DNA from: an uncultured archaeon
GTDB lineage: Archaea; Halobacteriota; Archaeoglobi; Archaeoglobales; Archaeoglobaceae
Direction: 5' to 3'
Assembly: GCA_964478605.1 (NCBI GenBank)
Contig: CAYZIW010000006.1
Location: forward strand, 1,002 to 65,001
Length of the DNA: 64,000 bases
A program made the translations under genes and the position numbers. The notes under the pieces were generated by a model. It was not told where the DNA came from, made no database searches, and was given only the letters and a program-made list of their open reading frames with translations. The stretch's first letter is position 1; every line of letters starts with the position of its first letter. Below are positions 23,424 through 44,911 of the stretch, in pieces.

Positions 23424-23477
23424 CGGCCTAGCCTAAAAAAACCGGATATAAGCATTTCTAAATTTAAAAATTGACGG

Positions 23478-26613: not shown

Positions 26614-27550
26614 CGAAATGACTCGGATCTATTTTTATTTCGTCCTCAACAACTGTGTATCCAAGCCTCTCTTTGATCACTATATACGCCATCTCTGGAG
26701 TTATTACACCAATCTCAGTAATTATAACATCGATGTAACTTCTTGGTGTAACGTCAAATGCTGGATTCCTAACCTTAACCCCCAAATCCAGTAGATCTTT
26801 TGGAGCCACTTCTTCTGCATTTCTTTCTTCGATCTCTACCAGTTCACCGTACAAGGTCTTAGGACTGAACTTGTAAGTTTCCGCTGCAACCATAAACGGT
26901 TTTCTGGACTCTTTAGCAATCAAAGCAATCTGAGATGTTCCAATTTTGTTTATAAGTGCTCCATTCGCCGTTATCGTGTCAGCTCCAACTAAAACGCAAT
27001 CAACATCATTCATAAAATATCTAACGGCAGAATCCACTATCAAAGTAACCTCAATTCCAAGCTCTCTCAACTGCTTTGCAGTCAACCTTCCTTGCCACCT
27101 TGGACGGGATTCAGTAGCTATCACTTCTATCTTTTTTCCTTTCTCATACGCTTTCTTCAATATCGATACAACTGATGAGGAGTTGCAGTGTGTCATTACA
27201 ACGGATCCATCTCTTATTCTCCTCTCTCCTATTTCCCCTATTATTCTCTGAGCATTCTCAACCCAAGATATAAATTCTTCAGCCTTTCTTATCGCATCCT
27301 GTCTCTTCTCCTCAACACTTTTTCCATTGTACCGCATTATGTAGCTTAGTGCGTTGTAAAGACTGACTGCAGTTGGGCGAGTGTTCAACAAAATTTTTGC
27401 CGCTTCCCTCATTTCATGATCGAAATTTTCGTCACTTGCTGTTTTAGCAAAATTTTTCAAAGTTAAGGCTGCAAACTTCGCTATCCTTGCAGCTCCCCTT
27501 ACTTCCATATTTTTTATCTTTTCAGCAGCCTCTAAAATGCTCCTCATCAC
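26600..27550 (-). CDS. eIF-2B alpha/beta/delta family protein, ribose-1,5-bisphosphate isomerase-like
   Basis: 316 aa. Contains ATESRPRWQG, GADTITANGALINKIGTSQIAL and AAETYKF. Confidence 0.75.
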   Translation of the reverse strand: MMRSILEAAEKIKNMEVRGAARIAKFAALTLKNFAKTASDENFDHEMREAAKILLNTRPTAVSLYNALSYIMRYNGKSVEEKRQDAIRKAEEFISWVENAQRIIGEIGERRIRDGSVVMTHCNSSSVVSILKKAYEKGKKIEVIATESRPRWQGRLTAKQLRELGIEVTLIVDSAVRYFMNDVDCVLVGADTITANGALINKIGTSQIALIAKESRKPFMVAAETYKFSPKTLYGELVEIEERNAEEVAPKDLLDLGVKVRNPAFDVTPRSYIDVIITEIGVITPEMAYIVIKERLGYTVVEDEIKIDPSHFDEVD

Positions 27551-30500
27551 TCTACACCTTCTATCTGTTTTATCTCCTCGTAAAGTTCTCTTAACGAACT
27601 ATAATAGTCTAGCTCCCCTCTCTCAACTAAGTCCATCTTTTCTTCAAGTAAGGCTGTTCTCTGCTCAGAAACGAAATTAGCAAATTTTTTGGCCAAGTAA
27701 TTGTAGACCTCTACTCCAAGGTTTGTAGGGATCAAACGACCGTTCTTTTCCAACACGTATCCCCTTTGGAAAAGTCTATCCAGTATCGTTGCATAAGTTG
27801 ACGGCCTTCCTATGCCCTTCTCTCTCATAAGCTGCACAACCTCTGCTTGAGTGAGTAAAGGAGATTTTGAAACTTTTTTAATCTTTGCTTGAACTCTAAA
27901 TACACCAATTGGAAGCTCCTTTCTTACCCATACAGATTTATACAAATCATAAGCTCTACCGCTTGCAGCCACTATTCTCTCTTCAATGATCGATTTTCCA
28001 TCGTAAACTATCTCATAAACTTTCTTTTTAACCACGAAAGGCTTACATTGCGATGCCATGAATCTCCGAAATATGAGATCGTAGAGAGCCAGATGTCTCC
28101 ATGTCAAATCTTCGATCGCTATAACCCCCTCCTGAACAAGTCTTTGTAGTGTATCTCTATCTATGGCCCTCGTCGGGCGTATACACTCATGTGCACCTTC
28201 TTTCTTCCACTCCCTTGCATGAAAATCGCTGCCCAAATACTCTTTTGCTATTCTAAATCCTACACTGCTTACAGTTGTTGAATCTGTTCTATGGTATGTA
28301 CAAAGTCCAAATTCAAAGAGTTCCTGTGCTATCTCCATAGTCTCCTTTGCTGACATCTTTAAAATTGCGTTGGCATCTTTAAGCAAAGAATCTGTCGTAT
28401 ATGGTGGCAATGGCTCCTTATCTTCCTCTAATTCCATAAAAAGCATAATTTCAATTTCAAACTCTCTCTTATCATGTTCCAAAGCTAAATCGAGCTCTTC
28501 TACAAAAGCTACTGTTTTTTTATTCCTCGATTCATTATATCTCTGGATTATCCACCCAAGGACAGGAGTTTGAGCTCTTCCAGCTGATAAATAAGTCTTT
28601 CCAAAAACTTTCCACAGTTTTTGACTTAATACAAAACCTATCCAGCGATCTTCAATTCTTCTTAAAAGTTGCGCTTTTACCAAGTTCTCATCGATTTCTC
28701 TCAGGTTATTTATAGCTTCTAGGATCGCCGTTCTTGTCACCTCATGAAATTCAGCCCTTTTTATTTCGGCAAATCCAGAGAGAAGATTTTTAAGATCCCA
28801 AGAGATCTTCTCCCCCTCAGTGTCGGGATCCGTTCCGATTATGACCAAACCTACATCGCTAGCAAATTTTCTTAACGCCTGAATTCTACTCTTTGAATCA
28901 TCTATGTCTTCACTTCCACACTTGGGACATTTCTTGCTATTTTCAGTGAACTGGTTTGCACAGTTTCTACATCGCTTTATCGACGCATAAACTGGTACAA
29001 ACTTTCCGTCCACTTCCACTCCATGGAAGCCCCGATCCGTGACCAAATCAGTTATATGACCCAAGCAGGCAGTGATAATTAAAAGATATTTTTCCATTGG
29101 TATCTCGTAGAATATTACTCCATCTACAACTTTAACGCTCGGTTTTCCGAAAAATTTTGAAATCTGTTTCGCTTTAGTCGGACTTTCAACTATGAAGAGT
29201 GCTGGCTTTATTAAATCCTTTTCTCTTATACTAATCCTCCTGCTCTCTTCTAATTCTTGCTTGAGCTTGGCAAAATCCAGCTGATCTAAAGTTTTAAAAT
29301 TTATTTCATAATATTTTGCCCTCTCAACAAATGCTTTAAGGATTTCAGAATCGCTTTCAAGCAAAAAACTCGCACCCTTAGTAACTCCTCCAGAAAACAA
29401 CCTCGAAGTTCTTCCAGAACCTTGGATGTATGTTCTAACATCTGGAAATACTATCTCTCCTCCTCTTACAATAACATCTCTGAAACTGCAGTCTGAAGTC
29501 TCAATCAACTTCTTCAGAACTTCTCTAAGACTTTTCTGAAGTTCCTCATCTCTATCTATTTTTTCCAAATTCCTGATAAATATATCCATTTCTGGCTTTT
29601 CCCTATAAAGAAGTGCAAGTGTCTTTAAGATGCGAGAGCTTGCTGAGTCTATATCTTCTACTCTTAATTTAAAAACGGGGCAGCCGAGGAAGATGGAATA
29701 CTTTATTCTTTCAGGTAGATCGATTCCTCTGACAAGAAGGCCATAGTAGTACGAAGTACCTATTAACACATCCAAATAACCTTCAGCGAATCTTTTAACA
29801 TCTTTACTGTTTCCAGCAACTGCAATCCCAACTTTGAACTTCTTTGAAAGTATTTCGTAAACTTTCCGAGCTTCCTCATTTGATCTTGCATAAACCACTC
29901 CTCCACTCCCGAGATTGTAGATGATTTTCTCCAACATCCCAAAATCCTCTTCTGCAACAAAATCTTCGATGTTCCTAACATTGAAATTTGAGGAACCTAT
30001 GTCGAAGTTTAGAAGTCTTCTAAAAAGTTCTGTAGCTTTTCCTTTCTTTGCTGTCGCAGTAGATACAACTAAAACTCCTTTAGGTTTTCCTTTCCAACCG
30101 TTCTCGTATCTAAGACCTAAAAGTTGAAGGATTTTATAAACGTTCCTCGATGATTTAAGTACAGCATCAACATCGTCAACGAAGATGAAATCAAAAACTC
30201 TTGACTTTATATTCTCAAAGTACCTCGAAAGGAACTGAGTAGTCGTAGCAATAATACTAAAATCCCCACAGTTCGAGAAAAATCCCTCTTTCTCTTCCTG
30301 CTTTAGACCTCCATGGTAATACCCTACTGAAATCTTTCCGGTTTTATTAAAACTCACCTCTAATCCCACTCTTTCAGCATATCTTTTAAGATTTTCGATA
30401 CACTGGAGTACAAGAAGTGACGTCGGGAAGATCAGGTAGCTTTTTTTACCTTTCGTTGCTAGAAAAAGCGCTACAGCTATACCAAAGGAAGTTTTTCCAA

Positions 30501-30741
30501 CACCCGTAGGAGATGTCGTTGCAAAACTCTCGCCTCTTAAGATCCTCCTAGCCCACATTTTTTGGATGTCTCTCGGCTTTCCAATACATTTCTCAAAGAA
30601 CAAAAGAAATTCTTTTAGTGTATCGTCCGAGTAAGCTTCAGAAATTCTTCTACTAGTATTATCACACAAGTTCTCCTGAATCTCTTTACTTGAAAGATCC
30701 TTTCCACAAAGGGGACAAAGATCAGTATATAGTACATCCAT
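27547..30741 (-). CDS. rgy: Reverse gyrase
   Basis: N-terminal zinc finger CPLCG, helicase motifs SPTGVGKTSFG and VDDVD, an internal zinc ribbon CRNCANQF...CPKCG, TOPRIM motif VESPTKAKQI, and active-site block CTYHRTDS. Start chosen at MDVLYTDLCPLCG; the track's TTG at 30780 is possible. Confidence 0.95.
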   Translation of the reverse strand: MDVLYTDLCPLCGKDLSSKEIQENLCDNTSRRISEAYSDDTLKEFLLFFEKCIGKPRDIQKMWARRILRGESFATTSPTGVGKTSFGIAVALFLATKGKKSYLIFPTSLLVLQCIENLKRYAERVGLEVSFNKTGKISVGYYHGGLKQEEKEGFFSNCGDFSIIATTTQFLSRYFENIKSRVFDFIFVDDVDAVLKSSRNVYKILQLLGLRYENGWKGKPKGVLVVSTATAKKGKATELFRRLLNFDIGSSNFNVRNIEDFVAEEDFGMLEKIIYNLGSGGVVYARSNEEARKVYEILSKKFKVGIAVAGNSKDVKRFAEGYLDVLIGTSYYYGLLVRGIDLPERIKYSIFLGCPVFKLRVEDIDSASSRILKTLALLYREKPEMDIFIRNLEKIDRDEELQKSLREVLKKLIETSDCSFRDVIVRGGEIVFPDVRTYIQGSGRTSRLFSGGVTKGASFLLESDSEILKAFVERAKYYEINFKTLDQLDFAKLKQELEESRRISIREKDLIKPALFIVESPTKAKQISKFFGKPSVKVVDGVIFYEIPMEKYLLIITACLGHITDLVTDRGFHGVEVDGKFVPVYASIKRCRNCANQFTENSKKCPKCGSEDIDDSKSRIQALRKFASDVGLVIIGTDPDTEGEKISWDLKNLLSGFAEIKRAEFHEVTRTAILEAINNLREIDENLVKAQLLRRIEDRWIGFVLSQKLWKVFGKTYLSAGRAQTPVLGWIIQRYNESRNKKTVAFVEELDLALEHDKREFEIEIMLFMELEEDKEPLPPYTTDSLLKDANAILKMSAKETMEIAQELFEFGLCTYHRTDSTTVSSVGFRIAKEYLGSDFHAREWKKEGAHECIRPTRAIDRDTLQRLVQEGVIAIEDLTWRHLALYDLIFRRFMASQCKPFVVKKKVYEIVYDGKSIIEERIVAASGRAYDLYKSVWVRKELPIGVFRVQAKIKKVSKSPLLTQAEVVQLMREKGIGRPSTYATILDRLFQRGYVLEKNGRLIPTNLGVEVYNYLAKKFANFVSEQRTALLEEKMDLVERGELDYYSSLRELYEEIKQIEGVE

Positions 30742-30833
30742 AATCGACCTTGCACTTGCAAATAATAAATTTACTTTCAAATACCTGCAGAAAGGCAGTA
30801 GTGATTCTATTTAGTTATATTTATTATATTTAG

Positions 30834-31295
30834 TTATTTAGTAAGTTTGGTCTTAAAAATATCTCTCACAATATTGTAGATATCTTCAGCTATCTTTTCA
30901 ATGTTCATCTCCAACTCATGCGAAATTACCTCTGAAACCGTATAGGGGTTTTTTACTCCTATCCCCAATATCAAAATTTTTGGTCGAGATAGATTCAGGG
31001 CTCTTATAAACTGAATCGCTCCTGAAATTCCCGCGTAATGTGAAAAATTCTGAAGTTTTGTTATTTCTTCTACTTTTTCTATTAAAAAGACTTTTCCAAC
31101 CTCTCCTAGGATGCTGTCCACTATTAAAACGATCTCTTTGTCTAAAAATTGATCTATCAGTGCATAACCACTTCCTTCGAAAAATTTAACTTCAAAACCA
31201 TCAGATTCGAGTCTATCTTTAAGCTTTTCACCGACGATTAGGGCTATTTTATCGTCAGAATAGATTGGGTTTCCTAAAAATAAAATCGATATCAT
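30834..31295 (-). CDS. [NiFe] hydrogenase maturation endopeptidase
   Basis: 153 aa. Contains ILFLGNPIYSDDKIA. Immediately downstream of the large subunit gene. Confidence 0.75.
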   Translation of the reverse strand: MISILFLGNPIYSDDKIALIVGEKLKDRLESDGFEVKFFEGSGYALIDQFLDKEIVLIVDSILGEVGKVFLIEKVEEITKLQNFSHYAGISGAIQFIRALNLSRPKILILGIGVKNPYTVSEVISHELEMNIEKIAEDIYNIVRDIFKTKLTK

Positions 31296-31299
31296 AAAA

Positions 31300-32754
31300 T
31301 TAGTTTATAATATTTAGTAACTCACCTTGCGTGTTGTATACGTATATAGGCAACGCTGATGCTGACAAGTTGTGCGTTCCACATGCGTTGCATGGATCGT
31401 AAGCTCTGAAAGCCATCTCGACCATGTTTAGCAGTGCATCGTTTACGATTCCACCCTTTATCAGACTTTTTGCAGCTTTTTCTATAGATAGCGAGATCCT
31501 TCCAATGTTGTGCTGTGTAGCTACCAAAAGGTTCGCCTTTCTGATCACACCCCTTTCATCCGTTTCGTAGTGATGAATAAGTGTACCCCTAGGAGCCTCA
31601 ACAACCCCTATACCCACGTCAGGTGTTGAAGATGGTAAATTTCTTACATTTTGTTCAAGTATATCTGGATCCTTCGAAATTTCAGCTATGCGTTCAGCAG
31701 CATATATCATCTCTATAATTCTAGCCCAATGCATTGCTAAGGTTTGATGTGCTGGTTTGCCCAAGAAACCAAACATCTCCTCGAAAGCTTCTTGAGCAAT
31801 CGGTGTCGCTAGGCTATCTGCAACGTTTAGCCTTGCAAGTGGAGCCACAGCATAAATTCCGCTCTCTAAACCATCAGAAAATCCCCTCCAGCCAACTTTT
31901 CTCAGATAAGGGAACGTCATATAGCTCCAAGGCTCCACGTGTTCGGCTATGTGATCCAAATAATCCCTAGCATCAAATTTTGCAAATTCCCTGCCTTCAG
32001 GATCTACCACTCGAATTTTTCCATCGTAGAAGTTCAAACGATTTTTTTCATCAACTAAACCCATGTAGTAGGTTCTATGGGTGTAAGATTCACTTTTTAT
32101 CAGCCCGAGATATTTCTCATTTTTCAAAACAATTTCCTTGAAAATTTTAAGAGTAAACTGCGTGAATTCCAAGGCCTGCTCGCTTAAAACTTTCAGTTCT
32201 TTTACAATTTCCTCGTTTAGGGGCTTGGATACCCCTCCAGGCAATCCAAAAACCGGATGAATGGTCTTACCACCTATTTTTTCCATCATCTGTCTTATAC
32301 TCTTCCTCATTCCAATTATCTTTAACCCTACATTTTTTCCGACCCTCTTTATAACACCTGCTATGTTCCTCTCCTCCTTTGGAGCATCCATGCCAACGAT
32401 AAAATCCGGACCTGCAAGTACGTAGAAATGCAAGGCATGGTCTTCAAGAATAAACAGGTTGTAGAAGAGTTCACGAATCTTTTTTGCTGCAATTGGTGGA
32501 TCGACATTGTAAAGATCATCCAAAGCCTTTACAGAGGCCATATGATGTGCTGTCGGGCATACACCACATATTCTGGACGTTATTTGTGGCATATCCTCAG
32601 CATGTCTACCCTCAGCAAATTTCTCAAAACCTCTAAGCTCAGGTATCTGGAAAAAGGCTTTTACACAATTTCCAGCGTCATCGAGAACTATAACAATCTT
32701 TCCGTGACCTTCCAAACGAGTTATAGGATCTATAACCACTTTCTTGTCACTCAT
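31300..32754 (-). CDS. mvhA: [NiFe] hydrogenase large subunit, Mvh/Vhu type (group 3c-like)
   Basis: 484 aa. Contains ITRLEGHG, the N-terminal Ni-site motif RICGVCPTAHH, and the C-terminal DPCNACGTH followed by a cleavable tail. Confidence 0.9.
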   Translation of the reverse strand: MSDKKVVIDPITRLEGHGKIVIVLDDAGNCVKAFFQIPELRGFEKFAEGRHAEDMPQITSRICGVCPTAHHMASVKALDDLYNVDPPIAAKKIRELFYNLFILEDHALHFYVLAGPDFIVGMDAPKEERNIAGVIKRVGKNVGLKIIGMRKSIRQMMEKIGGKTIHPVFGLPGGVSKPLNEEIVKELKVLSEQALEFTQFTLKIFKEIVLKNEKYLGLIKSESYTHRTYYMGLVDEKNRLNFYDGKIRVVDPEGREFAKFDARDYLDHIAEHVEPWSYMTFPYLRKVGWRGFSDGLESGIYAVAPLARLNVADSLATPIAQEAFEEMFGFLGKPAHQTLAMHWARIIEMIYAAERIAEISKDPDILEQNVRNLPSSTPDVGIGVVEAPRGTLIHHYETDERGVIRKANLLVATQHNIGRISLSIEKAAKSLIKGGIVNDALLNMVEMAFRAYDPCNACGTHNLSASALPIYVYNTQGELLNIIN

Positions 32755-33785
32755 AACTCCACCATCTCCTTAACTAGTTTCGAAATCTCCAATCCTGCTT
32801 TATGACGAAGTTTTGAAGCCGGCAAGGTATACCTGTATATCACTCCAACCCAGTCGGGAATTTTATCGTAAGCCTTTCTAATTTCTTCTTCTTGCATCGG
32901 GGAATAATCAAGTATACTCCCTAGGTAAGAGATCGCCTTGCCACCATAATCCACTATACCTTCAAGAATGCCAAAACAACCCGTACAGGGCATGTTCGAT
33001 CTTATGCATAAGGCCTTACAACCTCCTCGAGTAACCGGACCCATACAAATGAACCCTTGTGCAAGGAGACACTTATTCGGCTCCGGTGTTATTTTATCAA
33101 CCCTCTTAAACTCTTTAATAAGCAATTTTTCTGGCTTCGTTTCGTTTAGTGGACATTCATCGCATAAAGACTTCCGCAATGCTCCTATTACTGCACCCCT
33201 TGGAGGTAAAGGATCAGCAAGCAAAGCTTGCAAAGCATTCCAGAAAACATCTGGAGTTGGTGGGCAGCCAGGGATGTAGTAATCGACGTCTACCACCTTA
33301 TCAAGTGGTTGCAAAACAGGAAGAGGCTCCGTTAACTCCAACTCAAATTTCATATTTACCTCGGGAATGCTTACTACTGTCTTTTTAGCTGGCAAAAACT
33401 CTCTTGGATTATCGATCGTTGGCACCTCTAAATACTTCCTCTCTAAAATCTCATCTAAGGCATATAAGTTTGCTAAACCCGGAATTCCTCCCCAAGCAGA
33501 ACATGCTCCATAAGCTACAACAATTTTAGATTTTCTTCTGAGCAACTTTACCATTTCTTCATGCTCTTTCAACCTTATTCCGCCATTTATGAATGTCACA
33601 GCGATAGACTTATCTGGAAGTTTTTCAACGTCTTCTTTCTTGAAATCCATTGCTACAGGGCAAAAAACTATTTCTACTGTTTCAAATAGGTCTAAAAGCC
33701 TTTCTGCTAAATCTACGAGAGACTCTTCACATCCTCCACATGAAGCACACCAATACCAAGCGACTTTTGGTTTTTCTGCCATCAA
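32751..33785 (-). CDS. mvhG: [NiFe] hydrogenase small subunit, Mvh type
   Basis: 344 aa. N-terminal WCASCGGCEES plus multiple distal Fe-S cysteine clusters. 4-nt overlaps on both sides. Confidence 0.85.
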   Translation of the reverse strand: MMAEKPKVAWYWCASCGGCEESLVDLAERLLDLFETVEIVFCPVAMDFKKEDVEKLPDKSIAVTFINGGIRLKEHEEMVKLLRRKSKIVVAYGACSAWGGIPGLANLYALDEILERKYLEVPTIDNPREFLPAKKTVVSIPEVNMKFELELTEPLPVLQPLDKVVDVDYYIPGCPPTPDVFWNALQALLADPLPPRGAVIGALRKSLCDECPLNETKPEKLLIKEFKRVDKITPEPNKCLLAQGFICMGPVTRGGCKALCIRSNMPCTGCFGILEGIVDYGGKAISYLGSILDYSPMQEEEIRKAYDKIPDWVGVIYRYTLPASKLRHKAGLEISKLVKEMVEL

Positions 33786-34213
33786 TCCACCTCCAATTTT
33801 GGTTTCAAAGCTCCAATTCTTTTCAAATCGCTTACCATTTCTTTAACAACCTGAACCCACTTGCTCGCTTCAGCAGCAGAGATCCACTCTAGTCTAAAAC
33901 GTTCTTTTTCTATTCCGAAGGATTCTAAAATTCTTTTGAGAAGTTCAAACCGCCTGTAAGCTTTATAGTTCCCTTCAATGTAGTGGCAGTCAGCTGGTGG
34001 ATGACAACCCGCGACTATTACTCCGTCTGCACCATCTGCAAAAGCTTCAAGAACAAACTGTGGGTCCACCCTACCAGAACACATAACCCTTATAACTCTT
34101 ACATTTGGTGGATAAGAAAGCCTACTAGTACCGGCTAAATCAATTGCTGCGTAAGTACACCAGTTACAAGCAAAAACTATTATCTTGGGTTCAAAATCAA
34201 CCATAACCTTCAC
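33782..34213 (-). CDS. mvhD: MvhD/FlpD-like [2Fe-2S] subunit
   Basis: 143 aa. Contains IIVFACNWCTYAA, VMCSGRVDP and VAGCHPPADCHY. Confidence 0.9.
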   Translation of the reverse strand: MKVMVDFEPKIIVFACNWCTYAAIDLAGTSRLSYPPNVRVIRVMCSGRVDPQFVLEAFADGADGVIVAGCHPPADCHYIEGNYKAYRRFELLKRILESFGIEKERFRLEWISAAEASKWVQVVKEMVSDLKRIGALKPKLEVD

Positions 34214-36161
34214 CTCTAAAAGCAGCTACAGTTTGGGCTAAAAGCTGAACATCTTTGAAGCCTAGGTGTTGCATAGCTCCACTTGGACAGGCAGCGTTAC
34301 AGGTTCCGCATCCCATGCATAGCGCCTTTTCAACTTTTGCAATTCTATCTCCATTGATACTTCTTATTGAAATAGCAGAATAAGGACATACAGCCACACA
34401 AATCGCACAGCCGCTGCACTTCTCCTCGTTGACTTGAGCAATCATGGGCTCTATAGTGATCTTTCCTTTTGAGAGTAAAGACATAGCTTTTGCAGCTGCT
34501 GCCGAGCCCATCCTTATACTTTCAAGTATATTTTTTGGACCCGTTATGCATCCCGCTAGGAATATGCCCTTTGTTGGTGCTTCAACTGGAGCTAGCTTTA
34601 AATGCGCTTCTCTAACAAAACCTTCTCCACCACAGCTGACTCTTGTAACAGCGATCAGTTCTTCTATATCTCTTGGTGGAAGCATACCAATAGAAAGAAC
34701 GATTGCTTCAACAGGAATTCTTATCTCTTGCTGAATAGTGTACTCAAAAACGTCGATAAAAAGTCCTTCAGGAGATATAGTTATTTTAGGTGTTTTTTCC
34801 TCAAATTTTATAAAATTAATCAATTTTTTGCCAGCCTCCTCATAAAGCGATTCATCGCTGCCGTAGGTCATTATATCTTTGTAGATTATATAAACGTTCA
34901 TTTCGGGGTACTTTTCCTTTATTTTTATAGCACTGTTTATCGCTGTCGTGCAGCACATTCTTGAGCAATAACTTTTTGCTCCCGGAGTTGTACCTCTTGA
35001 ACCAACGCATTGAATAAAAGCAAGACTTTTAGGGACCTTATTGCCTATTATCAACTCTCCTTTCGTTGGACTTTCCGGATCAAGAAGTCTTTCAAGCTGA
35101 AGTAGAGTTATTATGTTTGGACTCAACCCATATCCGTATTCTCCCTTGAACGGTCTATACGGATCATAACCTGTTGCGATTATTACGGCTCCAACTTTCA
35201 ATTCAACGATTTTTGCCTCCTCCTTTAAGTTTATCGCTTTATATCTACAAACCTTTTCACATTCTCCGCATTTTACGCAAACCCTGTAATCTACAGCATA
35301 GTAGGGAGGATATGCGTTCTTGAATGGCATAAATATTGCTTTTCTTCTATCCAACCCGAAGTTGTATTCATTTGAAACCTCAATCGGACAAACTTCTTCA
35401 CATTCCCCACAGCTTGTACATCTACTGTTTACAAACCTTGGATTCAACTTTATCTTCGCTAAATAATTTCCTACAAATCCAGTAAGTTGTATAAGTTCAG
35501 CACTTGTGAAAACCTGTATCCTTGGGCAGTCTTTAATTTTTTCTATCATCTTGCTTACAACTTCTGCTCCTTTTGTTTTAGGGTCTATATAGCCTATAAG
35601 TGCCGCTTTTCCACCTATTGTCGGGCTTTTTTCAACAACATAAACATCGAAGCCGTAATTTGCAAGTTCTAGTGCAGCTCTTATCCCAGCAACTCCTCCA
35701 CCTAAGACTAAAACGCTCTTCTTTGCTTCAACTTCGAGCTCTTCCAACGGTTCTAAATATCTTGCCTTAGCTACAGCCATTCTAACAATTTCCATTGCTT
35801 TTTCTGTCGCTTTTTCTTTTTCATGATGCACCCAAGAGCAGTGCTCCCTTATGTTCGCCATCTCCAAAAGATACTTGTTGAGTCCAGCCTCACTAACTGC
35901 TGTTCTAAATGTTATCTCATGTAGAGCTGGAGAACAGGAGGCAACAACTATCCTATTAAGGTTTTGATTTTTTATGTCCTCTTTTATAAGATCTTGCCCT
36001 GGTTCTGAACACATGAAAACGTAGTCCCTCGCAACTACAACGCCTGGAAGCGTTTTTGCATATTCAGCAACTTTCTTCACATCTACAACTCCAGCGATGT
36101 TGAATCCACAGTGACACACATAAACGCCGATTCGAACCTCATCCATTGAAAACACCTCCAT
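34197..36161 (-). CDS. hdrA: Heterodisulfide reductase subunit A
   Basis: 654 aa. N-terminal VYVCHCGFNIAG domain, FAD motif VLGGGVAGIRAALELA, inserted ferredoxin, and C-terminal CSGCAICVAVCP / CMGCGTCNAACP. Confidence 0.9.
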   Translation of the reverse strand: MEVFSMDEVRIGVYVCHCGFNIAGVVDVKKVAEYAKTLPGVVVARDYVFMCSEPGQDLIKEDIKNQNLNRIVVASCSPALHEITFRTAVSEAGLNKYLLEMANIREHCSWVHHEKEKATEKAMEIVRMAVAKARYLEPLEELEVEAKKSVLVLGGGVAGIRAALELANYGFDVYVVEKSPTIGGKAALIGYIDPKTKGAEVVSKMIEKIKDCPRIQVFTSAELIQLTGFVGNYLAKIKLNPRFVNSRCTSCGECEEVCPIEVSNEYNFGLDRRKAIFMPFKNAYPPYYAVDYRVCVKCGECEKVCRYKAINLKEEAKIVELKVGAVIIATGYDPYRPFKGEYGYGLSPNIITLLQLERLLDPESPTKGELIIGNKVPKSLAFIQCVGSRGTTPGAKSYCSRMCCTTAINSAIKIKEKYPEMNVYIIYKDIMTYGSDESLYEEAGKKLINFIKFEEKTPKITISPEGLFIDVFEYTIQQEIRIPVEAIVLSIGMLPPRDIEELIAVTRVSCGGEGFVREAHLKLAPVEAPTKGIFLAGCITGPKNILESIRMGSAAAAKAMSLLSKGKITIEPMIAQVNEEKCSGCAICVAVCPYSAISIRSINGDRIAKVEKALCMGCGTCNAACPSGAMQHLGFKDVQLLAQTVAAFRGEGYG

Positions 36162-37497
36162 TTGCTAGCACTCTTATTTCTCCAGCCATAGAACGTTTCG
36201 CTATAAGTGCCGCCCTTGCAGCTGCTGCGCTGGCTTCAGTTACAGAATCCGGAATGTCCTTAGCTCCTGCTACCGCTCCAACTACAAAAATTCCTTCAAC
36301 TGTTGTGGATACGGGGTCGAGATATGGATCCTTTAGTTTCACAAATCCATCGCTGGTTAATTCAACTGGTAGAGGTAACTTCGAATTCGGTGTTATAGCT
36401 ACGGAAAGTACGACCATATCGTACTCTTCAACTCTTAAATAGCTCTCAGCAGTGTCTTCATAAACAACCCTGAGATTCTTCGTCTCAGCTATTTCTTCAA
36501 TTCTTACTACTTTCCCACGAACATACCTTACACCAAACTCTCTTTTTGCCCTTTCCAAGAACTCGTTGAAACCTTTACCAAAAGCTCTGATGTCCATGTA
36601 GTAAACAGTGCACTGGACTTCAGGCAAATGTTCCTTAGCCAAAATTGCTTGTTTCGTAGCAGCCATACAACAGTATGCCGAACAGTAATGGTTAAATCTA
36701 ACATCTCTCGATCCAACACACTGTATCCATGCAATCTTCCTTGGATGCTTGCCGTCTGATCTCCTTAAAATCTCCCCACCACTCGGTCCAGTTGCTGATA
36801 CTAGTCTTTCGAACTCAAGGTTTGTATAGAGGTTCTGATAAACTCCATAACCGTATTCGGGAATGTTCTTAGCGTCGTAAAGCTCCATACCTGTTGCAAC
36901 GATTATTGCAGCAACTTTTAATTCTACGACTTCAGGTTTCTGTTCGTATTCAATTGCTTTAGTCGGACAATGCCTTTCACAAACACCGCATAAAATTTTA
37001 CCTTCCTTTTTAGCCTTTTCCGGCGGATTCAATCGCATACAGTATCTAGCATCTATTACTGCCTTTTTTGGAACTGCTTGTGGGAACATGATATATATTG
37101 CTCTTCTATTTGATAATCCCAAGTTGTATTCATCTGGAACGTTCTTTACGGGACATTTCTGAGTACAGATTCCGCAACCATTACACTTTGTCCAGTCAAC
37201 ATATGTGGGTCTTTTAAGCACTCTAACCACAAAATTACCGGCTCTTCCTGTAACATCCTCGATCTCCGAGTTCATTAAAAGTTTTATATTAGGATATCTC
37301 AAAACTGCGGCCATCTTAGGGGCTAGAATACATGAAGCACAATCGAGAGTTGGAAAAGTCTTGTCAAGGTAAGCCATTTTTCCTCCTATGCTTGGAGCTT
37401 TTTCGACTAGAAAAACCTCTATTCCTTGCTCAGCTAAGTCCAAAGCTGCCTGAATTCCAGCAACTCCTCCCCCTACAACCAAAACACTTCCATTCAT
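36139..37497 (-). CDS. HdrA-like/QmoA-like FAD oxidoreductase lacking the HdrA N- and C-terminal domains
   Basis: 452 aa. Contains VVGGGVAGIQAALDLAEQG, DCASCILAP, and the inserted CNGCGICTQKCP and CGVCERHCP. Confidence 0.8.
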   Translation of the reverse strand: MNGSVLVVGGGVAGIQAALDLAEQGIEVFLVEKAPSIGGKMAYLDKTFPTLDCASCILAPKMAAVLRYPNIKLLMNSEIEDVTGRAGNFVVRVLKRPTYVDWTKCNGCGICTQKCPVKNVPDEYNLGLSNRRAIYIMFPQAVPKKAVIDARYCMRLNPPEKAKKEGKILCGVCERHCPTKAIEYEQKPEVVELKVAAIIVATGMELYDAKNIPEYGYGVYQNLYTNLEFERLVSATGPSGGEILRRSDGKHPRKIAWIQCVGSRDVRFNHYCSAYCCMAATKQAILAKEHLPEVQCTVYYMDIRAFGKGFNEFLERAKREFGVRYVRGKVVRIEEIAETKNLRVVYEDTAESYLRVEEYDMVVLSVAITPNSKLPLPVELTSDGFVKLKDPYLDPVSTTVEGIFVVGAVAGAKDIPDSVTEASAAAARAALIAKRSMAGEIRVLANGGVFNG

Positions 37498-37498
37498 A

Positions 37499-38617
37499 TT
37501 ATCCCTCTTTAAAAAATCCCTTTCTTGCGGCTATATAGTAAGCCAAAACCTTGTACAACCAGTGGTTGTGTTTACCGAACGGAACTTCTAGAAGAAGGAT
37601 TGGAACTATTAGGCTTAGAACTACGATGTAGAGGATATACGAAAAATAGTAGTATGAAATATCGTTAAGAATCAGAATTGCAAGATACAATAGAGCTACT
37701 GGAAAGAAAACTATTAAGGACATCCAATCTGTTGAATGTGTAAACTTCTTGTAATACCAATGAGTCTTTTGCCTTACAAACAGTCTCTTCATTAGTGGTG
37801 AAGAAAAACCATAAAGCAGTGAAATTGCTGCTAAATACCCAAAAATTTTTAAGATCGTTCCATATGGGTAAATGAAAAAGTATGATGGCAAAAAAAGATA
37901 GAAAAGTAGTACCAAAGTGTATAATCCAAGCCCTAAAAGTATAAAAACGTGCTCAATTATTCTTTCCCGCTTTTCTGGAACCCTAAGGGCATCCCTCTCC
38001 ACATCTATAAAAAATTTTGTAAGTTTTATAATTGCCATTAAAAAACCGACCTTATAGTCTTTACCACCTCCAAAAGCCCTATATGCTCTTTTCGCGCTTA
38101 AAAATAATACCAAAGAAGCAAATAATGCGGAAAAAGCGATTGGATAGCTCAAATCTTTAACTGCAAAAAATTCTGTGCTGATATAATCTGCTAATGAACG
38201 CCAATAGTAGAAATAGTAGAAAGAAAGAGAAATTGCGAAAACTACGAAATGTAGAAACAGTTTTTTGAGTAAGCCTGTCTTATTCCACCACCTAGAGACA
38301 CCAAAAGGATCGAAAAATCCGCTTTGGTACCTTCTTATCGCTGCCAGTACTTCAGAGGGGCTTGCACCACGGGGACAGCTATCAGTACAATCTCCGTGGA
38401 GATTACAAGTCCATGGAGTTATATCTCCCAATATTTTCTCATTTAAACCGATCTGTGTATATCTTATAGCTCTTCTGAAGCTTACATCGATCGATTCAGT
38501 AATTGGACAAACTGCCGTACAAGAACCACATTGATAACATTCTAAAAGACTTTTTCCTCCCATTTTTATTATCTCTTCTGCAATCTTTGGATTTGCAAAC
38601 AATACACTATTTAACAT
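37499..38617 (-). CDS. QmoC-like fusion: HdrC-like 2x[4Fe-4S] domain plus a NarI/HdrE-like membrane domain
   Basis: 372 aa. N-terminal CYQCGSCTAVCP and CNLHGDCTDSCP, then multiple hydrophobic helices, ending in VPFGKHNHWLYK. That end resembles the PF(S/T/G)(K/R)xxH helix-5 motif of NarI-family cytochrome b. Confidence 0.7.
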   Translation of the reverse strand: MLNSVLFANPKIAEEIIKMGGKSLLECYQCGSCTAVCPITESIDVSFRRAIRYTQIGLNEKILGDITPWTCNLHGDCTDSCPRGASPSEVLAAIRRYQSGFFDPFGVSRWWNKTGLLKKLFLHFVVFAISLSFYYFYYWRSLADYISTEFFAVKDLSYPIAFSALFASLVLFLSAKRAYRAFGGGKDYKVGFLMAIIKLTKFFIDVERDALRVPEKRERIIEHVFILLGLGLYTLVLLFYLFLPSYFFIYPYGTILKIFGYLAAISLLYGFSSPLMKRLFVRQKTHWYYKKFTHSTDWMSLIVFFPVALLYLAILILNDISYYYFSYILYIVVLSLIVPILLLEVPFGKHNHWLYKVLAYYIAARKGFFKEG

Positions 38618-38745
38618 TATAAACCCCCCAAACTGTTATAATTTCCAATTTTTGTTGATAATTTTTGTCGCTACAAATATTTAAAATTTTTGCTCGTGAT
38701 AGCAAATGTGTGAAAACTTTAAAAATTTTTGGAGATTTAGACAAT

Positions 38746-39998: not shown

Positions 39999-41726
39999 TT
40001 GAAAAAAGATCTGATCCGAATTCAAGGCGTTTCGAAGAAATTTGATTCTGATTATGTTCTTAAAGACATCAATCTGACGATAAAAGAAGGAGAAGCTTTG
40101 GGAATTATTGGTCTAAGCGGTAGCGGTAAATCTGTCCTCATTCATATAATAAGAGGTTATAAGGAATACAAACCAACTGAAGGTAAGGTGATATACAACG
40201 TAGCTCTGTGCAAAAACTGCTACTGGGTAGATGTTCCAAGCAAGGCAGGTCAAAATTGTCTAAGATGTGATGGAAAGCTGGAAGAATGTGAAGTGGACAT
40301 ATGGGAGCTCGAAGATAAAGAACTTGCCGCTGCAATTAGAAAAAGAGTTGGTATAATGCTTCAAAGAACCTTCGCCCTCTACAGTGAGCAATCTGCTTTA
40401 GAGAACGTTATGGAAGCTATAAGCAGTGCAGGATTAGATGGGTTTAGTTTTGGAGCTACTAGAAGGGTTGAAATGCTAAGTAGAACTGCATACACGAACG
40501 ATGTAATTAACAAGGCCGTAGAATACCTTAAAGCTGTAAATCTTAGCCACAGAATGATGACACCCGCAAGAGATCTCAGTGGTGGTGAAAAACAGAGAGT
40601 GATACTTGCGAGACAGTTAGCGATTGAACCCATAGTACTGCTTGCCGATGAACCAACAGGTACGCTTGATCCTGAAAACACAAGGGTCATATTAAATGCT
40701 CTCAAAAAATACATAAAGGACCAAGGTCGAACGCTTGTTCTTACATCTCACATCCCTCAAATAATCGAAAAACTTTCCGATAGAGTCGTCTGGCTTGACC
40801 ATGGCAAAGTTGTTGCTGAAGGTGATCCTAAAAGCATAATTAAAAAATTCTTAGAACAAGTATCTAAAGAAGAGGTAAAAACTGAAATTGCTGTAGAGCA
40901 GGAGATACTAAAACTTAAAGACGTGAAGAAGTACTACTACTCGGTAAGCAGGGGAGTTGTTAAGGCAGTTGATGGTGTTACGCTTGAGGTAAAAGAGGGA
41001 GAAATATTTGGGATCCTTGGACCAAGTGGTTCTGGAAAAACAACGCTTTCAAGAATAATCGCTGGAATAATTCCTCCAACGAACGGGGAGGTTTACATTA
41101 GAATAGGCGACGATTGGGTAGACATGAGAGCACCAGGACTAACAGGAAAAGGTAGAGCCACACCTTATATAGGTATCTTACATCAAGAATATGGATTGTT
41201 TCCGTTTAGATCTGTACTAGAGAACCTTACAGACTCAATAAGCTTGGATTTTCCAGCAGAGTTTGCAAGAATGAGAGCTATAGATGTTCTTATGGGTGTT
41301 GGATTTCCCAGAGAAGAAGCTGAGAAGATCCTGGAGAGAACTCCAGATGAGTTGAGTGAAGGTCAGAGGCATAGGGTCGCTTTAGCCCAAGTTATGATAA
41401 GAGAACCAAGACTACTACTGCTGGACGAACCTTCCGGCACCATGGACCCAATAACGAAAATAGAAGTTGCAAAGACGCTTAACAAGATAAGAGAAGAAAC
41501 GAAAGCAACGATAGTTGTTATCTCCCACGACATGGAATTCACACGCCTTGTTTGTGATAGGGTAGCTTTAATGCTTGACGGCAAAATTAGACTCATGGGT
41601 TCAGCAAACGAGGTGATAGAATCGCTTGAAAAACTTGAGTTGAAGATTTCAGAAATTGGAGAAATTGTAGTGAGGAAGGAAGAAGAAGGAATGATAAGTA
41701 AAACCGACACAAGTTGTGGTGTTTAA
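39999..41726 (+). CDS. atwA: Methyl-coenzyme M reductase system component A2 (double ABC ATPase)
   Basis: 575 aa. Two ABC cassettes (GLSGSGKS...LSGGEKQR...LLADEPT and GPSGSGKT...LSEGQRHR...LLLDEPS), with the Cys-rich insert CKNCYW...CLRCDG in cassette 1. TTG start follows GGAGGTGG. Confidence 0.8.
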   Translation: MKKDLIRIQGVSKKFDSDYVLKDINLTIKEGEALGIIGLSGSGKSVLIHIIRGYKEYKPTEGKVIYNVALCKNCYWVDVPSKAGQNCLRCDGKLEECEVDIWELEDKELAAAIRKRVGIMLQRTFALYSEQSALENVMEAISSAGLDGFSFGATRRVEMLSRTAYTNDVINKAVEYLKAVNLSHRMMTPARDLSGGEKQRVILARQLAIEPIVLLADEPTGTLDPENTRVILNALKKYIKDQGRTLVLTSHIPQIIEKLSDRVVWLDHGKVVAEGDPKSIIKKFLEQVSKEEVKTEIAVEQEILKLKDVKKYYYSVSRGVVKAVDGVTLEVKEGEIFGILGPSGSGKTTLSRIIAGIIPPTNGEVYIRIGDDWVDMRAPGLTGKGRATPYIGILHQEYGLFPFRSVLENLTDSISLDFPAEFARMRAIDVLMGVGFPREEAEKILERTPDELSEGQRHRVALAQVMIREPRLLLLDEPSGTMDPITKIEVAKTLNKIREETKATIVVISHDMEFTRLVCDRVALMLDGKIRLMGSANEVIESLEKLELKISEIGEIVVRKEEEGMISKTDTSCGV

Positions 41727-42247
41727 GTTTTTTTACTCTTAAGAGCAGCAATTCTCAAAGCATTCTCCAAATCGCTTTTTGGGATTATTGTTACTATTGG
41801 TATCCTCAGTATTTTTTCCAAGATTGGGCTCAATATTGGCGCACAGACTATAGCTTTTGCACCATCTCTCTCAGCTCTAATTGCAGAAACTATAGCTTCA
41901 TCGAAGGAATTCGCTGGATATTCTTTAACGTTTATCTTTCTACCATCGACTTCTAGCTCATAGCTCAAAAGCTGATTCAAAGCTACCCTAGAAGCTACAA
42001 CAGCGATAAAATCCTCTTCAGACTCCAAAAACTTAAATATTGTATTCAGTATTTTCCTTAGAGTGCTCAAATTCGGTTCTCTCTTTGCTGAAATTATTTT
42101 ATAGAGAGTACTTAGGGGAATTCCAGCCTCGATCGCAAAATCCTTTAGGTTCATACCCAATTCCTTTTTGATTACTTCCTCAAGCTTCTCACCGAAGTTT
42201 TCTGCATGGAGGAGGGAGAGTACAACCTCAGCGTAATTCTTTCTCAT
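41723..42247 (-). CDS. HTH (XRE-like) transcriptional regulator with an uncharacterised C-terminal domain
   Basis: 174 aa. Contains LKDFAIEAGIPLSTLYKIISAKREPNLSTLRKI. The 3' end overlaps the atwA stop by 4 nt in convergent orientation. Confidence 0.55.
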   Translation of the reverse strand: MRKNYAEVVLSLLHAENFGEKLEEVIKKELGMNLKDFAIEAGIPLSTLYKIISAKREPNLSTLRKILNTIFKFLESEEDFIAVVASRVALNQLLSYELEVDGRKINVKEYPANSFDEAIVSAIRAERDGAKAIVCAPILSPILEKILRIPIVTIIPKSDLENALRIAALKSKKT

Positions 42248-42347
42248 AATTTCCTCTAAGGATAAAAGTGTTTAAAAAACTTCCTCTTTGTACCAACAAA
42301 ATGTAATCTTAGGAAAGTTTTATAAAGCGATGGTGTAAGCAGAGGAT

Positions 42348-43370
42348 ATGAAGAGGTGGATACTGATTTCTCTAGTAGTTTTTACAGCCTGTTTAGCTTT
42401 CTGCATAAGCGAGGAGCAAAAGGTCAAAGAGATAAGAGTCAGCTACCAGCCAAGCTGGCACCACGCAGCCCTTTTTGTAATAATAGAAAAAGGATGGGAT
42501 GAAAAAATTCTTGGTGCTAAGATAGTAACAAGCCCACCGTTTGCGTCTGGGCCACCACAGATGGAAGCCTTTGCATCAGGGCAGCACGATATTGCCTACG
42601 TTGGTGCAGCTCCGCCTTTGTCACTACTTTCTAGAGGTTTCGATGCTAAGATAGTGGCGGTTGCAAATACTGAAGGTTCAGCAATCATTGCAAGGCAGGA
42701 TACAGTCTACGACGGTCCAAAATCCCTTGAAGGAAAGTCGATAATGACATACCAGCCCGGATCAATTCAACATACAGTTCTTATGAAGTGGCTTAAAGAT
42801 AACAACGTCGATATCTCAAAGGTAGATATAAAATATGGTGGTCCAGCAGAGATAAGAGAAGCATTGAGAGCTAAAGCTGTAGACTTCGGCTTCGCTCCAG
42901 ACCCTACACCTTTGGTCGCAGAGATCGAGGGCTATGGAAAGATCGTAGCAGGATCTTCGGATCTCTCTCCAAATCATCCATGCTGCGTTGTTTTGATGAG
43001 TGGAAAGTTCATCAGAGAGAACGAAGAGCTTGCTGCAAAGTTCTTAGCTCTGCATATAATTGCAAGTGAGTACGCAAAAGATCCGAAAAACAAAGAAGAG
43101 ATGAAGCAAATTTTAATAAAGTGGCTCGGAATTAACGAAGCTGTAGCTGAAAAATTCCCTGGAACAACGAATCTACAAACAGATCCTAGAGACAAAAACT
43201 GGCAGAACGGATTAAACCTGCTCTGCGAAGCACAGTATGACTTGGGGCTGACAAAAGATAGCAAAGGAAATCCGATTAAATTAAAAGCTGAAGAGATCGT
43301 TGATGTTAAGCTCTACGAAAAAGCTTTAAGCATGGTGCCGAAAATAAAAAGTGAGCTGGGGTTGAAATGA
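42348..43370 (+). CDS. ABC transporter substrate-binding protein, NitT/TauT (NMT1/SsuA-like) family
   Basis: 340 aa. N-terminal signal/anchor followed by an SsuA-like pattern (IRVSYQPSWHHAA, DIAYVGAAP). Confidence 0.7.
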   Translation: MKRWILISLVVFTACLAFCISEEQKVKEIRVSYQPSWHHAALFVIIEKGWDEKILGAKIVTSPPFASGPPQMEAFASGQHDIAYVGAAPPLSLLSRGFDAKIVAVANTEGSAIIARQDTVYDGPKSLEGKSIMTYQPGSIQHTVLMKWLKDNNVDISKVDIKYGGPAEIREALRAKAVDFGFAPDPTPLVAEIEGYGKIVAGSSDLSPNHPCCVVLMSGKFIRENEELAAKFLALHIIASEYAKDPKNKEEMKQILIKWLGINEAVAEKFPGTTNLQTDPRDKNWQNGLNLLCEAQYDLGLTKDSKGNPIKLKAEEIVDVKLYEKALSMVPKIKSELGLK

Positions 43371-44149
43371 ACTTGAAAAATTTAGTAATATTTATTTTTT
43401 CGATTGGAAGTTTTTTTGCCGTTTGGGAGATTTATTACTGGGTTTTTATAAATAATCCTTTTATTCTTGCTCCACCTTCTAAGGTTATCCCTACATTTTA
43501 TGATCTGCTCGCTGGTAACATTCAGGGCTTTTATATGCCTCTAGATGCCATATACAGTCTGTATCATTACTTTCTTGGCTTTACAGTGGCTGTTGCAGTT
43601 GGATTTAGTGTGGGGTTAATTGCGGGATGGTACAAAAGGGTAGAAAGGTTCCTATATCCAATAATCGAGCTTATCAGACCGATACCACCGATAGCCTGGA
43701 TACCGATTTCAATACTGCTTCTCAAACTTACTCACACAGCAGCAGCGTTCATAATTTTCATAGGATCCGTATTTCCAATACTTTTAAACACCATCTACGG
43801 TGTGTCTTCCATCGAAAAGAAATACATCGAAGCTGCCTTAACACTTGGTGCAACAAAGACAAAAGATATTTTTATAAAGGTAATAATCCCTGCATCGATG
43901 CCAGCTTTCCTTACAGGTTTAAGAGTTGGCTCAGGAGTTGCTTGGATGTGCGTTGTTGCTGCAGAACTTTTTGGAGTATCCCATTATGGCTTGGGTTACA
44001 AGATCGAGCTTGGCAGACTCTACCACTCCCCAGACATCGTAATATCTTACATGCTCGCTATTGGCATAGTGGGGCTGGTGTTGGATAGAGTTTACAGAAC
44101 TTTGGAGGCATCCATCGTAAAGTGGAGAAGGGGGTATCTAATTGAGTGA
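43367..44149 (+). CDS. ABC transporter permease, NitT/TauT family
   Basis: 260 aa. BPD-transporter EAA loop region EAALTLGATKTKDIFIKVIIPASMP. Confidence 0.8.
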   Translation: MNLKNLVIFIFSIGSFFAVWEIYYWVFINNPFILAPPSKVIPTFYDLLAGNIQGFYMPLDAIYSLYHYFLGFTVAVAVGFSVGLIAGWYKRVERFLYPIIELIRPIPPIAWIPISILLLKLTHTAAAFIIFIGSVFPILLNTIYGVSSIEKKYIEAALTLGATKTKDIFIKVIIPASMPAFLTGLRVGSGVAWMCVVAAELFGVSHYGLGYKIELGRLYHSPDIVISYMLAIGIVGLVLDRVYRTLEASIVKWRRGYLIE

Positions 44150-44882: not shown

Positions 44883-44911
44883 AAATTTTAAGCCCAAGGC
44901 GAAATTTAGTT

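Follow-up and report, generated by a model that had tools for sequence, protein, structure and literature searches.

A conserved seven-gene operon from an Mcr-encoding Archaeoglobales archaeon and its predicted membrane-attached, H2-oxidising HdrA-based complex

Results

Organization of the operon

The DNA analysed here, referred to as the window, is a 64,000-nucleotide stretch of contig CAYZIW010000006.1 (assembly GCA_964478605.1) from an uncultured archaeon, and the object of this study is an operon that it carries at positions 30834-38617. The operon consists of seven consecutive open reading frames (ORFs) on the minus strand, which bring together a [NiFe]-hydrogenase of the Mvh type, two flavoproteins of the HdrA type, and a subunit with a putative membrane domain. 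The ORF listing, which gave the same gene lengths as the initial annotation, and the measurement of the junctions upheld the number of genes, their coordinates, their strand, and their tight packing. The gene identities, established via Pfam, NCBIfam, and PDB searches, were also those originally proposed, apart from the naming of one flavoprotein.

The first gene (37499-38617) encodes a 372-aa HdrC–QmoC-like fusion, below called the anchor. It is followed by the genes for a short HdrA of 452 aa (36139-37497) and a long, full-length HdrA of 654 aa (34197-36161). Next come the genes for MvhD (33782-34213; Pfam FlpD, E=1e-55), an MvhG-type [NiFe]-hydrogenase small subunit (32751-33785; Pfam Oxidored_q6 and NCBIfam VhuG, E=3e-64), and an MvhA-type large subunit (31300-32754; NCBIfam VhuA, E=5e-126, and Pfam NiFeSe_Hases). 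The last gene (30834-31295) encodes a hydrogenase maturation endopeptidase of the HycI/HybD family, which matched Pfam HycI and scored 48.2 bits against TIGR00072, above the cut-off of 47.45 bits. The junctions between the maximal ORFs, taken in this order, measured +1, -23, -17, -4, -4, and +4 nt. The gene calls for a 92%-identical relative (locus L002) use later starts for HdrA, MvhD, and MvhG and give overlaps of 8, 8, 1, and 4 nt, suggesting that these are the true overlaps.

The translated hydrogenase subunits were inspected directly. MvhG begins with MMAEKPKVAWYWCASCGGC and lacks a twin-arginine signal, so it is expected to be cytoplasmic. MvhA contains the metal-binding motifs RICGVC and DPCNACGTH together with a C-terminal extension, the part cut off by the protease. 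MvhD, which links the hydrogenase to HdrA via a [2Fe-2S] cluster, matched positions 647-774 of NCBIfam HdrA2 and shares 30% identity with the QmoB C-terminal domain; it has its own gene here and is a C-terminal fusion in HdrA2 and QmoB.

The operon is preceded by a divergent intergenic region of ~130 bp (38618-38745), bounded by an MFS gene whose start, at ~38746, was inferred from a 373-aa homolog in L002. An AT-rich TATA-like box, TTTAAATA, was recognized by eye on the minus strand of this region at 38685-38678, as was a GGGGGG ribosome-binding site located 8 nt ahead of the first ATG of the operon. On the downstream side, a reverse gyrase gene of the same strand lies 53 nt away.

The two HdrA subunits are complementary

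The long HdrA aligned with residues 1-651 of HdrA from the MvhAGD–HdrABC structure (5odc_A; E=5e-191) and has an N-terminal cluster domain, a flavin adenine dinucleotide (FAD) core, an inserted ferredoxin domain, and a C-terminal ferredoxin domain. The alignment begins at Met6 (36146), which is likely to be the true start, and the L002 homolog was called as 649 aa. The short HdrA aligned with residues 146-567 of the same chain (E=1e-131). It comprises the FAD/thioredoxin-reductase-like core with a [4Fe-4S] cluster and an inserted two-cluster ferredoxin domain, and it lacks both the N-terminal and the C-terminal domains. All eight Cys are kept in the inserted ferredoxin domain of each protein.

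In the long HdrA, all Fe-S ligands are kept except the equivalents of Cys194/Cys197, where the site reads LIGYIDPKTKGAE. The short HdrA retains exactly these residues as Cys52/Cys55, within the motif LDKTFPTLDCASCIL. In the solved HdrA structure, the N-terminal [4Fe-4S] cluster of a given protomer has Cys197 of its partner as a ligand, and tandem HdrAs in which one copy has lost Cys197 and the other the N-terminal domain were interpreted by Chadwick et al. 2022 (PMC9012536) as obligate heterodimers. We found this complementarity in 11 of 11 long and 13 of 13 short copies, that is, in the window proteins and in 10 long and 12 short copies taken from related loci (the long copy of locus L015 was not in the set). 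Since it held for all recovered copies, it implies that the long and short HdrA would form an obligate heterodimer. The predicted complex would be asymmetric: MvhD would have one entry port, the only C-terminal ferredoxin domain of the pair, and just one low-potential branch would be complete.

The initial annotation had regarded the 452-aa protein as a QmoA-like flavoprotein. The comparison with QmoA and QmoB from the aprBA-qmoABC locus of Desulfotignum (L088, with aprBA directly upstream) did not bear this out. The short and the long HdrA are 49% and 47% identical to 5ODC HdrA, respectively, versus 34% to QmoA and 24% to QmoB. The 452-aa protein also keeps the second inserted cluster that QmoA does not have, and its assignment as a true QmoA was rejected. 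Judged by their sequences, both flavoproteins are HdrA proper and not QmoA/B. At the level of architecture, the earlier parallel, with HdrA plus a separate MvhD resembling a split QmoB and the short HdrA resembling QmoA, held well.

The membrane subunit is related to QmoC and has lost two of its four conserved His

Residues 1-105 of the anchor form an HdrC-type domain with the ligands of two [4Fe-4S] clusters, C27/C30/C33/C37 and C71/H74/C77/C81; this part matched Pfam Fer4_8 and HdrC chains of the PDB (E=1e-13). Against NCBIfam QmoC (NF038018), the anchor aligned over its full length with 135.9 bits and did not reach the equivalog cut-off of 300. An AlphaFold2 model built on 63 homologs (mean predicted confidence, pLDDT, of 90) showed six transmembrane helices following the HdrC-like domain, with the topology deduced from secondary structure alone. 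In Foldseek searches, the N-terminal domain was assigned to HdrC with a probability of 1.0 and the membrane part to NarI (1q16_C) with a probability of 0.94 and a TM-score of 0.50 on the target. A profile of the membrane domain alone also matched Escherichia coli NarI (E=4e-6). Neither sequence nor Foldseek searches returned a solved structure of QmoC or QmoABC, only HdrC and NarI being matched.

The C-terminal motif PFGKHNH352 aligned with PFSRLIH205 of NarI, which contains the proximal-heme ligand, in line with the NarI-like heme-b helix motif (PFGKHNHW) that had been noted at the end of this protein. In the profile alignment, the position of the distal-heme ligand NarI His187 is occupied by Val333, and at the position of NarI His66 no member of the QmoC family has His. 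A further His, His223, is invariant and lies at the cytoplasmic start of the third transmembrane helix. The NarI alignment starts at residue 57; when extrapolated, it puts His223 and His56 out of register by four residues. In bacterial QmoC, four His columns are conserved, corresponding to positions 207, 223, 333, and 352 of the anchor. Of these, His223 and His352 are kept, supporting at least one heme site, and positions 207 and 333 are lost, being Glu and Val, respectively.

His223, His352, and Lys349 are invariant across the 63 homologs. Position 333 is Val, Leu, or Phe in all seven Archaeoglobales versions and His in every version from Thermoproteota, Korarchaeia, and Geothermarchaeota. 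The clade has conserved His residues of its own at 286, 294, and 350, each of which is predicted to lie on the cytoplasmic side. His223 and His352 are likely the ligands of the proximal heme, which gives good support to one heme site at the cytoplasmic face. With only these two of the four His kept and Val333 at the distal position, a canonical di-heme QmoC is not supported.

The second Fe-S motif of the anchor, CxxHxxCxxxCP, has His74 (codon at ~38396-38398) in place of a ligand Cys. The same His occurs in all anchors of the type 2 defined below, and Cys occupies the position in type 1 anchors, bacterial QmoC, and HdrC of methanogens. This substitution suggests a His-ligated or otherwise altered cluster.

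Conservation of the operon and two types of anchors

The distribution of the operon was scanned in GTDB species genomes with two clade-specific peptide patterns, and the best 80 of 178 matches were analysed. At least 11 further species-level genomes, belonging to several archaeal phyla, were found to have the identical seven-gene order; as it recurs so widely, the arrangement is not a matter of chance. Five metagenome-assembled genomes (MAGs) of the Archaeoglobales type (L006-L009 and L014) contain the full order. L006, L008, L009, and L014 are labelled Archaeoglobales or Archaeoglobaceae, and L007 together with the partial L010 is labelled "uncultured archaeon" and was grouped with them by identity. 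The full order was also present in L011-L013 and L015 (labelled Nitrososphaeria, Nitrososphaerota, or Thermoprotei), in L016 (labelled "uncultured archaeon", its cluster grouping with the latter four), and in Ca. Methanodesulfokora washburnensis (L031). Partial copies were located at contig ends in L010, where the cluster stops after MvhD, and in a Geothermarchaeota MAG (L017). No cultured Archaeoglobus or other cultured member of the Archaeoglobi appeared among the best 80 of the 178 matches.

In comparison with the window, the Archaeoglobales MAG versions are 51-92% identical in the anchor and 77-97% in the five other redox subunits. Across lineages, the five non-anchor redox subunits are 62-87%, the anchor 31-53%, and the protease 36-56% identical. 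Within ±10 kb of the cluster, only the close relative L006 shares any neighbour with the window, and no mcr was found within this distance in any locus.

Two tandem anchor paralogs were detected in L011-L013, L016/L085, and L087. The upstream one (type 1) has all-Cys clusters and His333 and resembles the single copy of L015, L017, and L031. The downstream one (type 2) has His74, Glu207, His286, His294, and His350 and matches the Archaeoglobales form; Archaeoglobales retain type 2 only. The genes of the tandem anchors overlap (8841-10004 and 10001-11131 in L085; 7552-8694 and 8691-9818 in L087), and their products are 35-37% identical to each other.

Loci L018-L084, from Acidobacteriota, Gemmatimonadota, and Aminicenantes MAGs, encode a QmoC-like protein ~28% identical to that of the window. 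As seen, for example, in L058 (10001-18740), L026 (6447-15985), and L025 (10001-20766), the QmoC-like gene is followed by an HdrA-like region split by an insertion of 1.4-6 kb and then by genes for a long HdrA and MvhD, to which some loci add MvhG/MvhA. These loci look like a bacterial counterpart of the architecture.

Absence of HdrB from the window, the host, and the neighbouring genes

No protein with the CCG domain (HdrB/HdrD) is encoded by the 46 annotated ORFs of the window, and a six-frame scan of the window for the CCG motif was likewise negative. HdrC is present in the window solely as the fusion to the membrane domain. Within these 64 kb, the absence of HdrB and of a free HdrC from the operon and its vicinity was thus confirmed. 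The annotated ORFs include no apr or sat genes.

The mcrBDCGA genes lie at 58050-62868, and the nearest homologs and synteny were found in Archaeoglobales MAGs, so the host is an Mcr-encoding member of this order. In the closest genome, MAG JZ_75_SW_bin_109, the proteins of the cluster are 89.5-97% identical to those of the window, and the cluster is kept with its flanking genes at 89.5-98% protein identity. The rRNA operon (16S, tRNA-Ala, and the start of 23S; 1-2705) has 61% GC versus ~40% elsewhere in the window, and together with the reverse gyrase gene (27547-30780) it marks the source as a hyperthermophilic archaeon.

Beside the operon, the region 39999-48727 contains a gene for an ABC ATPase with two domains, a candidate for component A2 of Mcr activation; Mur-ligase-like, nitrogenase-like, and CobB/CbiA-like genes come after it. 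A NifH-like gene is present past mcr at 63310-63816. The latter four look like cfbE, cfbD, cfbB, and cfbC of F430 biosynthesis, respectively, the names being taken from Pfam domains. The neighbourhood with the ABC ATPase and the F430-like genes is conserved in MAG JZ_75_SW_bin_109.

Several other features of the window were recorded. At 3527-8964, a beta-oxidation and electron transfer flavoprotein (ETF) module comprises genes for a thiolase, an OB-fold protein of the ChsH2 type, a 3-hydroxyacyl-CoA dehydrogenase/enoyl-CoA hydratase fusion, and the beta and alpha subunits of ETF. Two ORFs for family III CoA-transferases, which overlap by 98 nt, lie at 54805-57097, immediately upstream of the mcr genes; the first matched profile positions 55-365 only, so its start or integrity is uncertain. 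A LarC-type nickel-insertion gene is located at 12623-13843 (Pfam Ni_insertion, E=3e-105), and its maximal ORF overlaps the start of a divergent gene for a Cdc48-type AAA ATPase. The region 21308-23477 contains a cdc6/orc1 gene followed by an ORF-poor segment of ~950 bp, which might be a replication origin. A search for origin repeats beside cdc6 revealed one weak 14-nt inverted repeat and no direct repeats resembling the origin recognition box (ORB).

Discussion

The operon and the role proposed for it are already known. In Buessecker et al. 2022 (bioRxiv 10.1101/2022.12.01.518715), a "Mvh-Qmo-Hdr" cluster was described in Ca. Methanoglobus nevadensis, was found to be absent from cultivated non-methanogenic Archaeoglobi, and was speculated to move electrons between H2, ferredoxin, and menaquinone. 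According to Lynes et al. 2024 (ISME J; PMC10945360), the cluster of Ca. M. hypatiae is expressed at 995-2431 RPKM (reads per kilobase per million mapped reads), HdrB is absent from the genome, a fused HdrDE is highly expressed, and bifurcation of H2 electrons to menaquinone and ferredoxin was proposed. Liu et al. 2020 had reported Ca. Methanomixophus with MvhADG and HdrA and without HdrB. In the same accounts and in Lynes 2022, regeneration of coenzyme M (CoM-SH) and coenzyme B (CoB-SH) is ascribed to HdrD/HdrDE copies elsewhere in Methanoglobus-type genomes. By the test of novelty set when the operon was first noticed here, the idea is therefore not new, since both the cluster and the functional hypothesis had been published for these two organisms. 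The idea that the arrangement is routine in cultured Archaeoglobus was rejected as well: A. fulgidus has Mvh:HdlABC and a separate QmoABC, and none of the best 80 of 178 matches came from a cultured member.

Our analysis adds the complementarity of the HdrA pair, the loss of the distal-heme His in Archaeoglobales, and a wider phyletic spread with tandem anchors, which refine the published picture and do not change it. The assignment of the two flavoproteins to HdrA proper is a further addition. The accessible parts of the Buessecker 2022 and Lynes 2024 accounts do not mention the Cys197 complementarity, the loss of the distal-heme His, His74, the spread outside the Archaeoglobi, or this assignment. 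In Buessecker et al. (10.1101/2022.12.01.518715), the Methanoglobus Mcr groups with the Mcrs of Korarchaeota, Nezhaarchaeota, and Verstraetearchaeota; by analogy with this placement, the operon may share the history of the Methanoglobus Mcr.

We consider it reasonably probable that the operon encodes one membrane-attached, cytoplasm-facing, H2-oxidising flavin-based bifurcating complex with menaquinone and ferredoxin as electron acceptors. Present evidence thus favours the initial view of an H2-oxidising flavin-based complex wired to a membrane quinone pool. Gene content, the inventory of domains and ligands, and the conserved gene order were observed directly, and the literature reports high co-expression in a relative; assembly into one complex, heterodimerization of HdrA, heme binding, the use of quinone as the acceptor, and bifurcation are deduced from them. 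This reading is supported by the tight coupling of the genes and by their conserved order across phyla.

Electrons from H2 would enter at the [NiFe] site of MvhA and pass through the clusters of MvhG, the [2Fe-2S] cluster of MvhD, and the ferredoxin domain at the C terminus of the long HdrA to FAD. From there, the high-potential electron would go through the core cluster of HdrA, the two HdrC-type clusters, and the b heme (His223/His352) to menaquinone. The low-potential electron would reach ferredoxin by way of the long HdrA's N-terminal cluster, to which the short HdrA would contribute Cys55 as a ligand in trans, and of an inserted ferredoxin domain. Overall, the predicted complex would be an MvhAGD–HdrABC in which a quinone-reducing membrane module stands in place of HdrB and the heterodisulfide. 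The quinol formed could then be used by a separate membrane HdrDE or HdrD to regenerate CoM-SH and CoB-SH. The potentials are -414 mV for H2, -75 mV for menaquinone, about -500 mV for ferredoxin, and -140 mV for the heterodisulfide. With these textbook values, the overall reaction from H2 to menaquinone and ferredoxin is exergonic.

Several points weigh against this scheme. With the NarI His187 equivalent missing and two of the four QmoC His left, the heme content and the quinone site of the anchor are uncertain; one of its clusters has His in place of a Cys ligand, and its QmoC score (135.9 bits) is far under the equivalog cut-off of 300. With standard potentials of -75 mV for menaquinol and -140 mV for the heterodisulfide, the former is a poor donor for the latter, and the downstream step is not obviously favourable. 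Finally, HdrD/HdrDE, the menaquinone pathway, and the genome-wide absence of HdrB would apply to this host by analogy with its relatives in the literature.

A plain, non-bifurcating cytoplasmic H2:menaquinone oxidoreductase, in which the HdrA pair would do no more than conduct electrons, with no reduction of ferredoxin, is in our opinion unlikely. Electron transfer from H2 to menaquinone is strongly exergonic by itself, and bifurcation has never been demonstrated for complexes of the QmoABC type. Nevertheless, the FAD core is complete in both HdrAs, each inserted ferredoxin domain has its eight Cys, and the N-terminal cluster with its trans ligand is conserved in every copy; such machinery would be costly and of no use to a plain wire. 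These parts have been lost from true QmoB, where bifurcation is doubtful. True bifurcation is therefore favoured, because the ferredoxin branch lost in QmoB is retained here with all its Cys.

A complex that operates mainly in reverse is likewise unlikely. In such a case, menaquinol and reduced ferredoxin would confurcate to H2, either for disposal of electrons during methyl disproportionation or substrate oxidation or for interspecies H2 transfer. Flavin-based bifurcating enzymes are reversible in principle, confurcation was proposed for QmoABC (Ramos 2012), and the beta-oxidation and ETF genes of the window would generate reducing equivalents. Ca. M. hypatiae is reported (PMC10945360) to have grown on methylamines with no H2 added, any source of H2 being unclear. 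However, H2 uptake is the role of those Mvh-type group 3c hydrogenases that have been characterised, production of H2 from menaquinol is strongly uphill and would take most of the energy of ferredoxin, and the M. nevadensis culture, according to 10.1101/2022.12.01.518715, consumed H2 while forming methane.

An anchor acting mainly as a tether or docking module, whose HdrC-like clusters pass electrons to a separate CCG protein (HdrD, HdrDE, or DsrK) and thus to CoM-S-S-CoB or DsrC, is unlikely as well: it would fit the loss of the distal heme ligand in all Archaeoglobales versions with two of the four QmoC His kept, the proposal of HdrD as a substitute for HdrB (Liu 2020; Lynes 2022), and the several HdrD copies of the relatives, with DsrMK and DsrC in addition in M. 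hypatiae (PMC10945360 and 10.1101/2022.12.01.518715), but no CCG gene was present in or beside the cluster at any locus examined, and the six-helix NarI-like domain with invariant His223, His352, and Lys349 in 63 homologs favours a redox-active heme.

An extension of the bifurcating scheme may be put forward only tentatively, as we judge it rather doubtful. The Archaeoglobales anchor could be a derived type 2 paralog of QmoC, which lost the distal His, gained the His-ligated cluster and the three cytoplasm-side His, and turned into a mono-heme or otherwise rewired cytochrome b, with menaquinone being reduced at the cytoplasmic face. Together with HdrDE oxidising menaquinol at the outer face, it would create a proton-motive redox loop driven by the bifurcating hydrogenase. 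If true, the loop would be a distinct route coupling H2 to heterodisulfide reduction in quinone-containing methanogens. In that case, the occurrence of the cluster together with the TACK-type Mcr in Thermoproteota, Korarchaeia among them, would indicate a shared or laterally transferred module of energy conservation.

In Mcr-bearing Archaeoglobi, Korarchaeia, and other non-traditional methanogens without HdrB, it is the coupling of H2 to the regeneration of CoM-SH and CoB-SH and to energy conservation that is at issue. The operon, already flagged by the cultivation papers, is the leading candidate for the entry point of H2. The details described here sharpen the targets for biochemistry, namely the predicted obligate long/short HdrA heterodimer, the single canonical heme site of the Archaeoglobales anchor, the putative His-ligated cluster, and the tandem anchors of Thermoproteota.

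Comparison with known systems

The MvhAGD–HdrABC complex of methanogens (5ODC) shares with the window operon the homologs of MvhA, MvhG, MvhD, and HdrA, the long HdrA being 47% identical over its full length, as well as the HdrC-type domain and the logic of bifurcation. It differs in having HdrB with two CCG domains and a free HdrC. The window operon is devoid of HdrB, so it offers no site for the heterodisulfide, and its HdrC is fused to a six-helix cytochrome-b-like domain. Moreover, HdrA is a homodimer in the methanogen complex, whereas a long/short heterodimer with Cys197 supplied by the short HdrA is predicted here, following the pattern described by Chadwick et al.

The likeness to QmoABC is one of shared logic. 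Among its subunits, QmoA is the short one and retains Cys197, QmoB combines the N- and C-terminal domains with MvhD and lacks Cys197, and QmoC, like the anchor, combines an HdrC-type di-cluster domain with a membrane cytochrome b (Pires 2003, Ramos 2012; L088). However, the gene order is A-B-C with MvhD fused to QmoB in the former and C-A-B with a separate MvhD in the window, and the proteins of the window are only 34%, 24%, and ~22-25% identical to QmoA, QmoB, and QmoC, respectively. QmoB lost the inserted ferredoxin domain and most ligands of the core cluster, both of which are kept in the long HdrA. Of the four His columns of bacterial QmoC, two are missing from the anchor. QmoABC is linked to aprBA/sat; the window operon has a hydrogenase instead, with no apr or sat among the annotated ORFs of the window. 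Thus, the system appears Qmo-like in architecture and built from HdrA proper.

Mvh:HdlABC of A. fulgidus and A. profundus (AF1372-AF1377; Mander 2004, Hocking 2014) also combines Mvh with an HdrA-type flavoprotein in the same order and is thought to bifurcate. It is soluble and has HdlB and HdlC, whereas the window operon encodes no counterpart of the B subunit and carries its C module as a fusion with the membrane domain. Tandem or fused HdrA pairs of anaerobic methanotrophic archaea (ANME-1) and Moorella (groups 3-6 and 12-13; PMC9012536, accessible part) show the same complementarity of Cys197 and the N-terminal domain between adjacent genes. According to the same part of that source, the ANME HdrA clusters have other partner modules and are not attached to MvhAG and a QmoC-like anchor.

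The closest system is the cluster of Ca. Methanoglobus. As published, it consists, like that of the window, of MvhAGD, two HdrA homologs, and the HdrC–QmoC fusion, and it resides in an Mcr-bearing Archaeoglobales host, described for Methanoglobus as lacking HdrB, with the same proposal of electron transfer from H2 to menaquinone and ferredoxin. Between the two clusters, there is no difference in kind.

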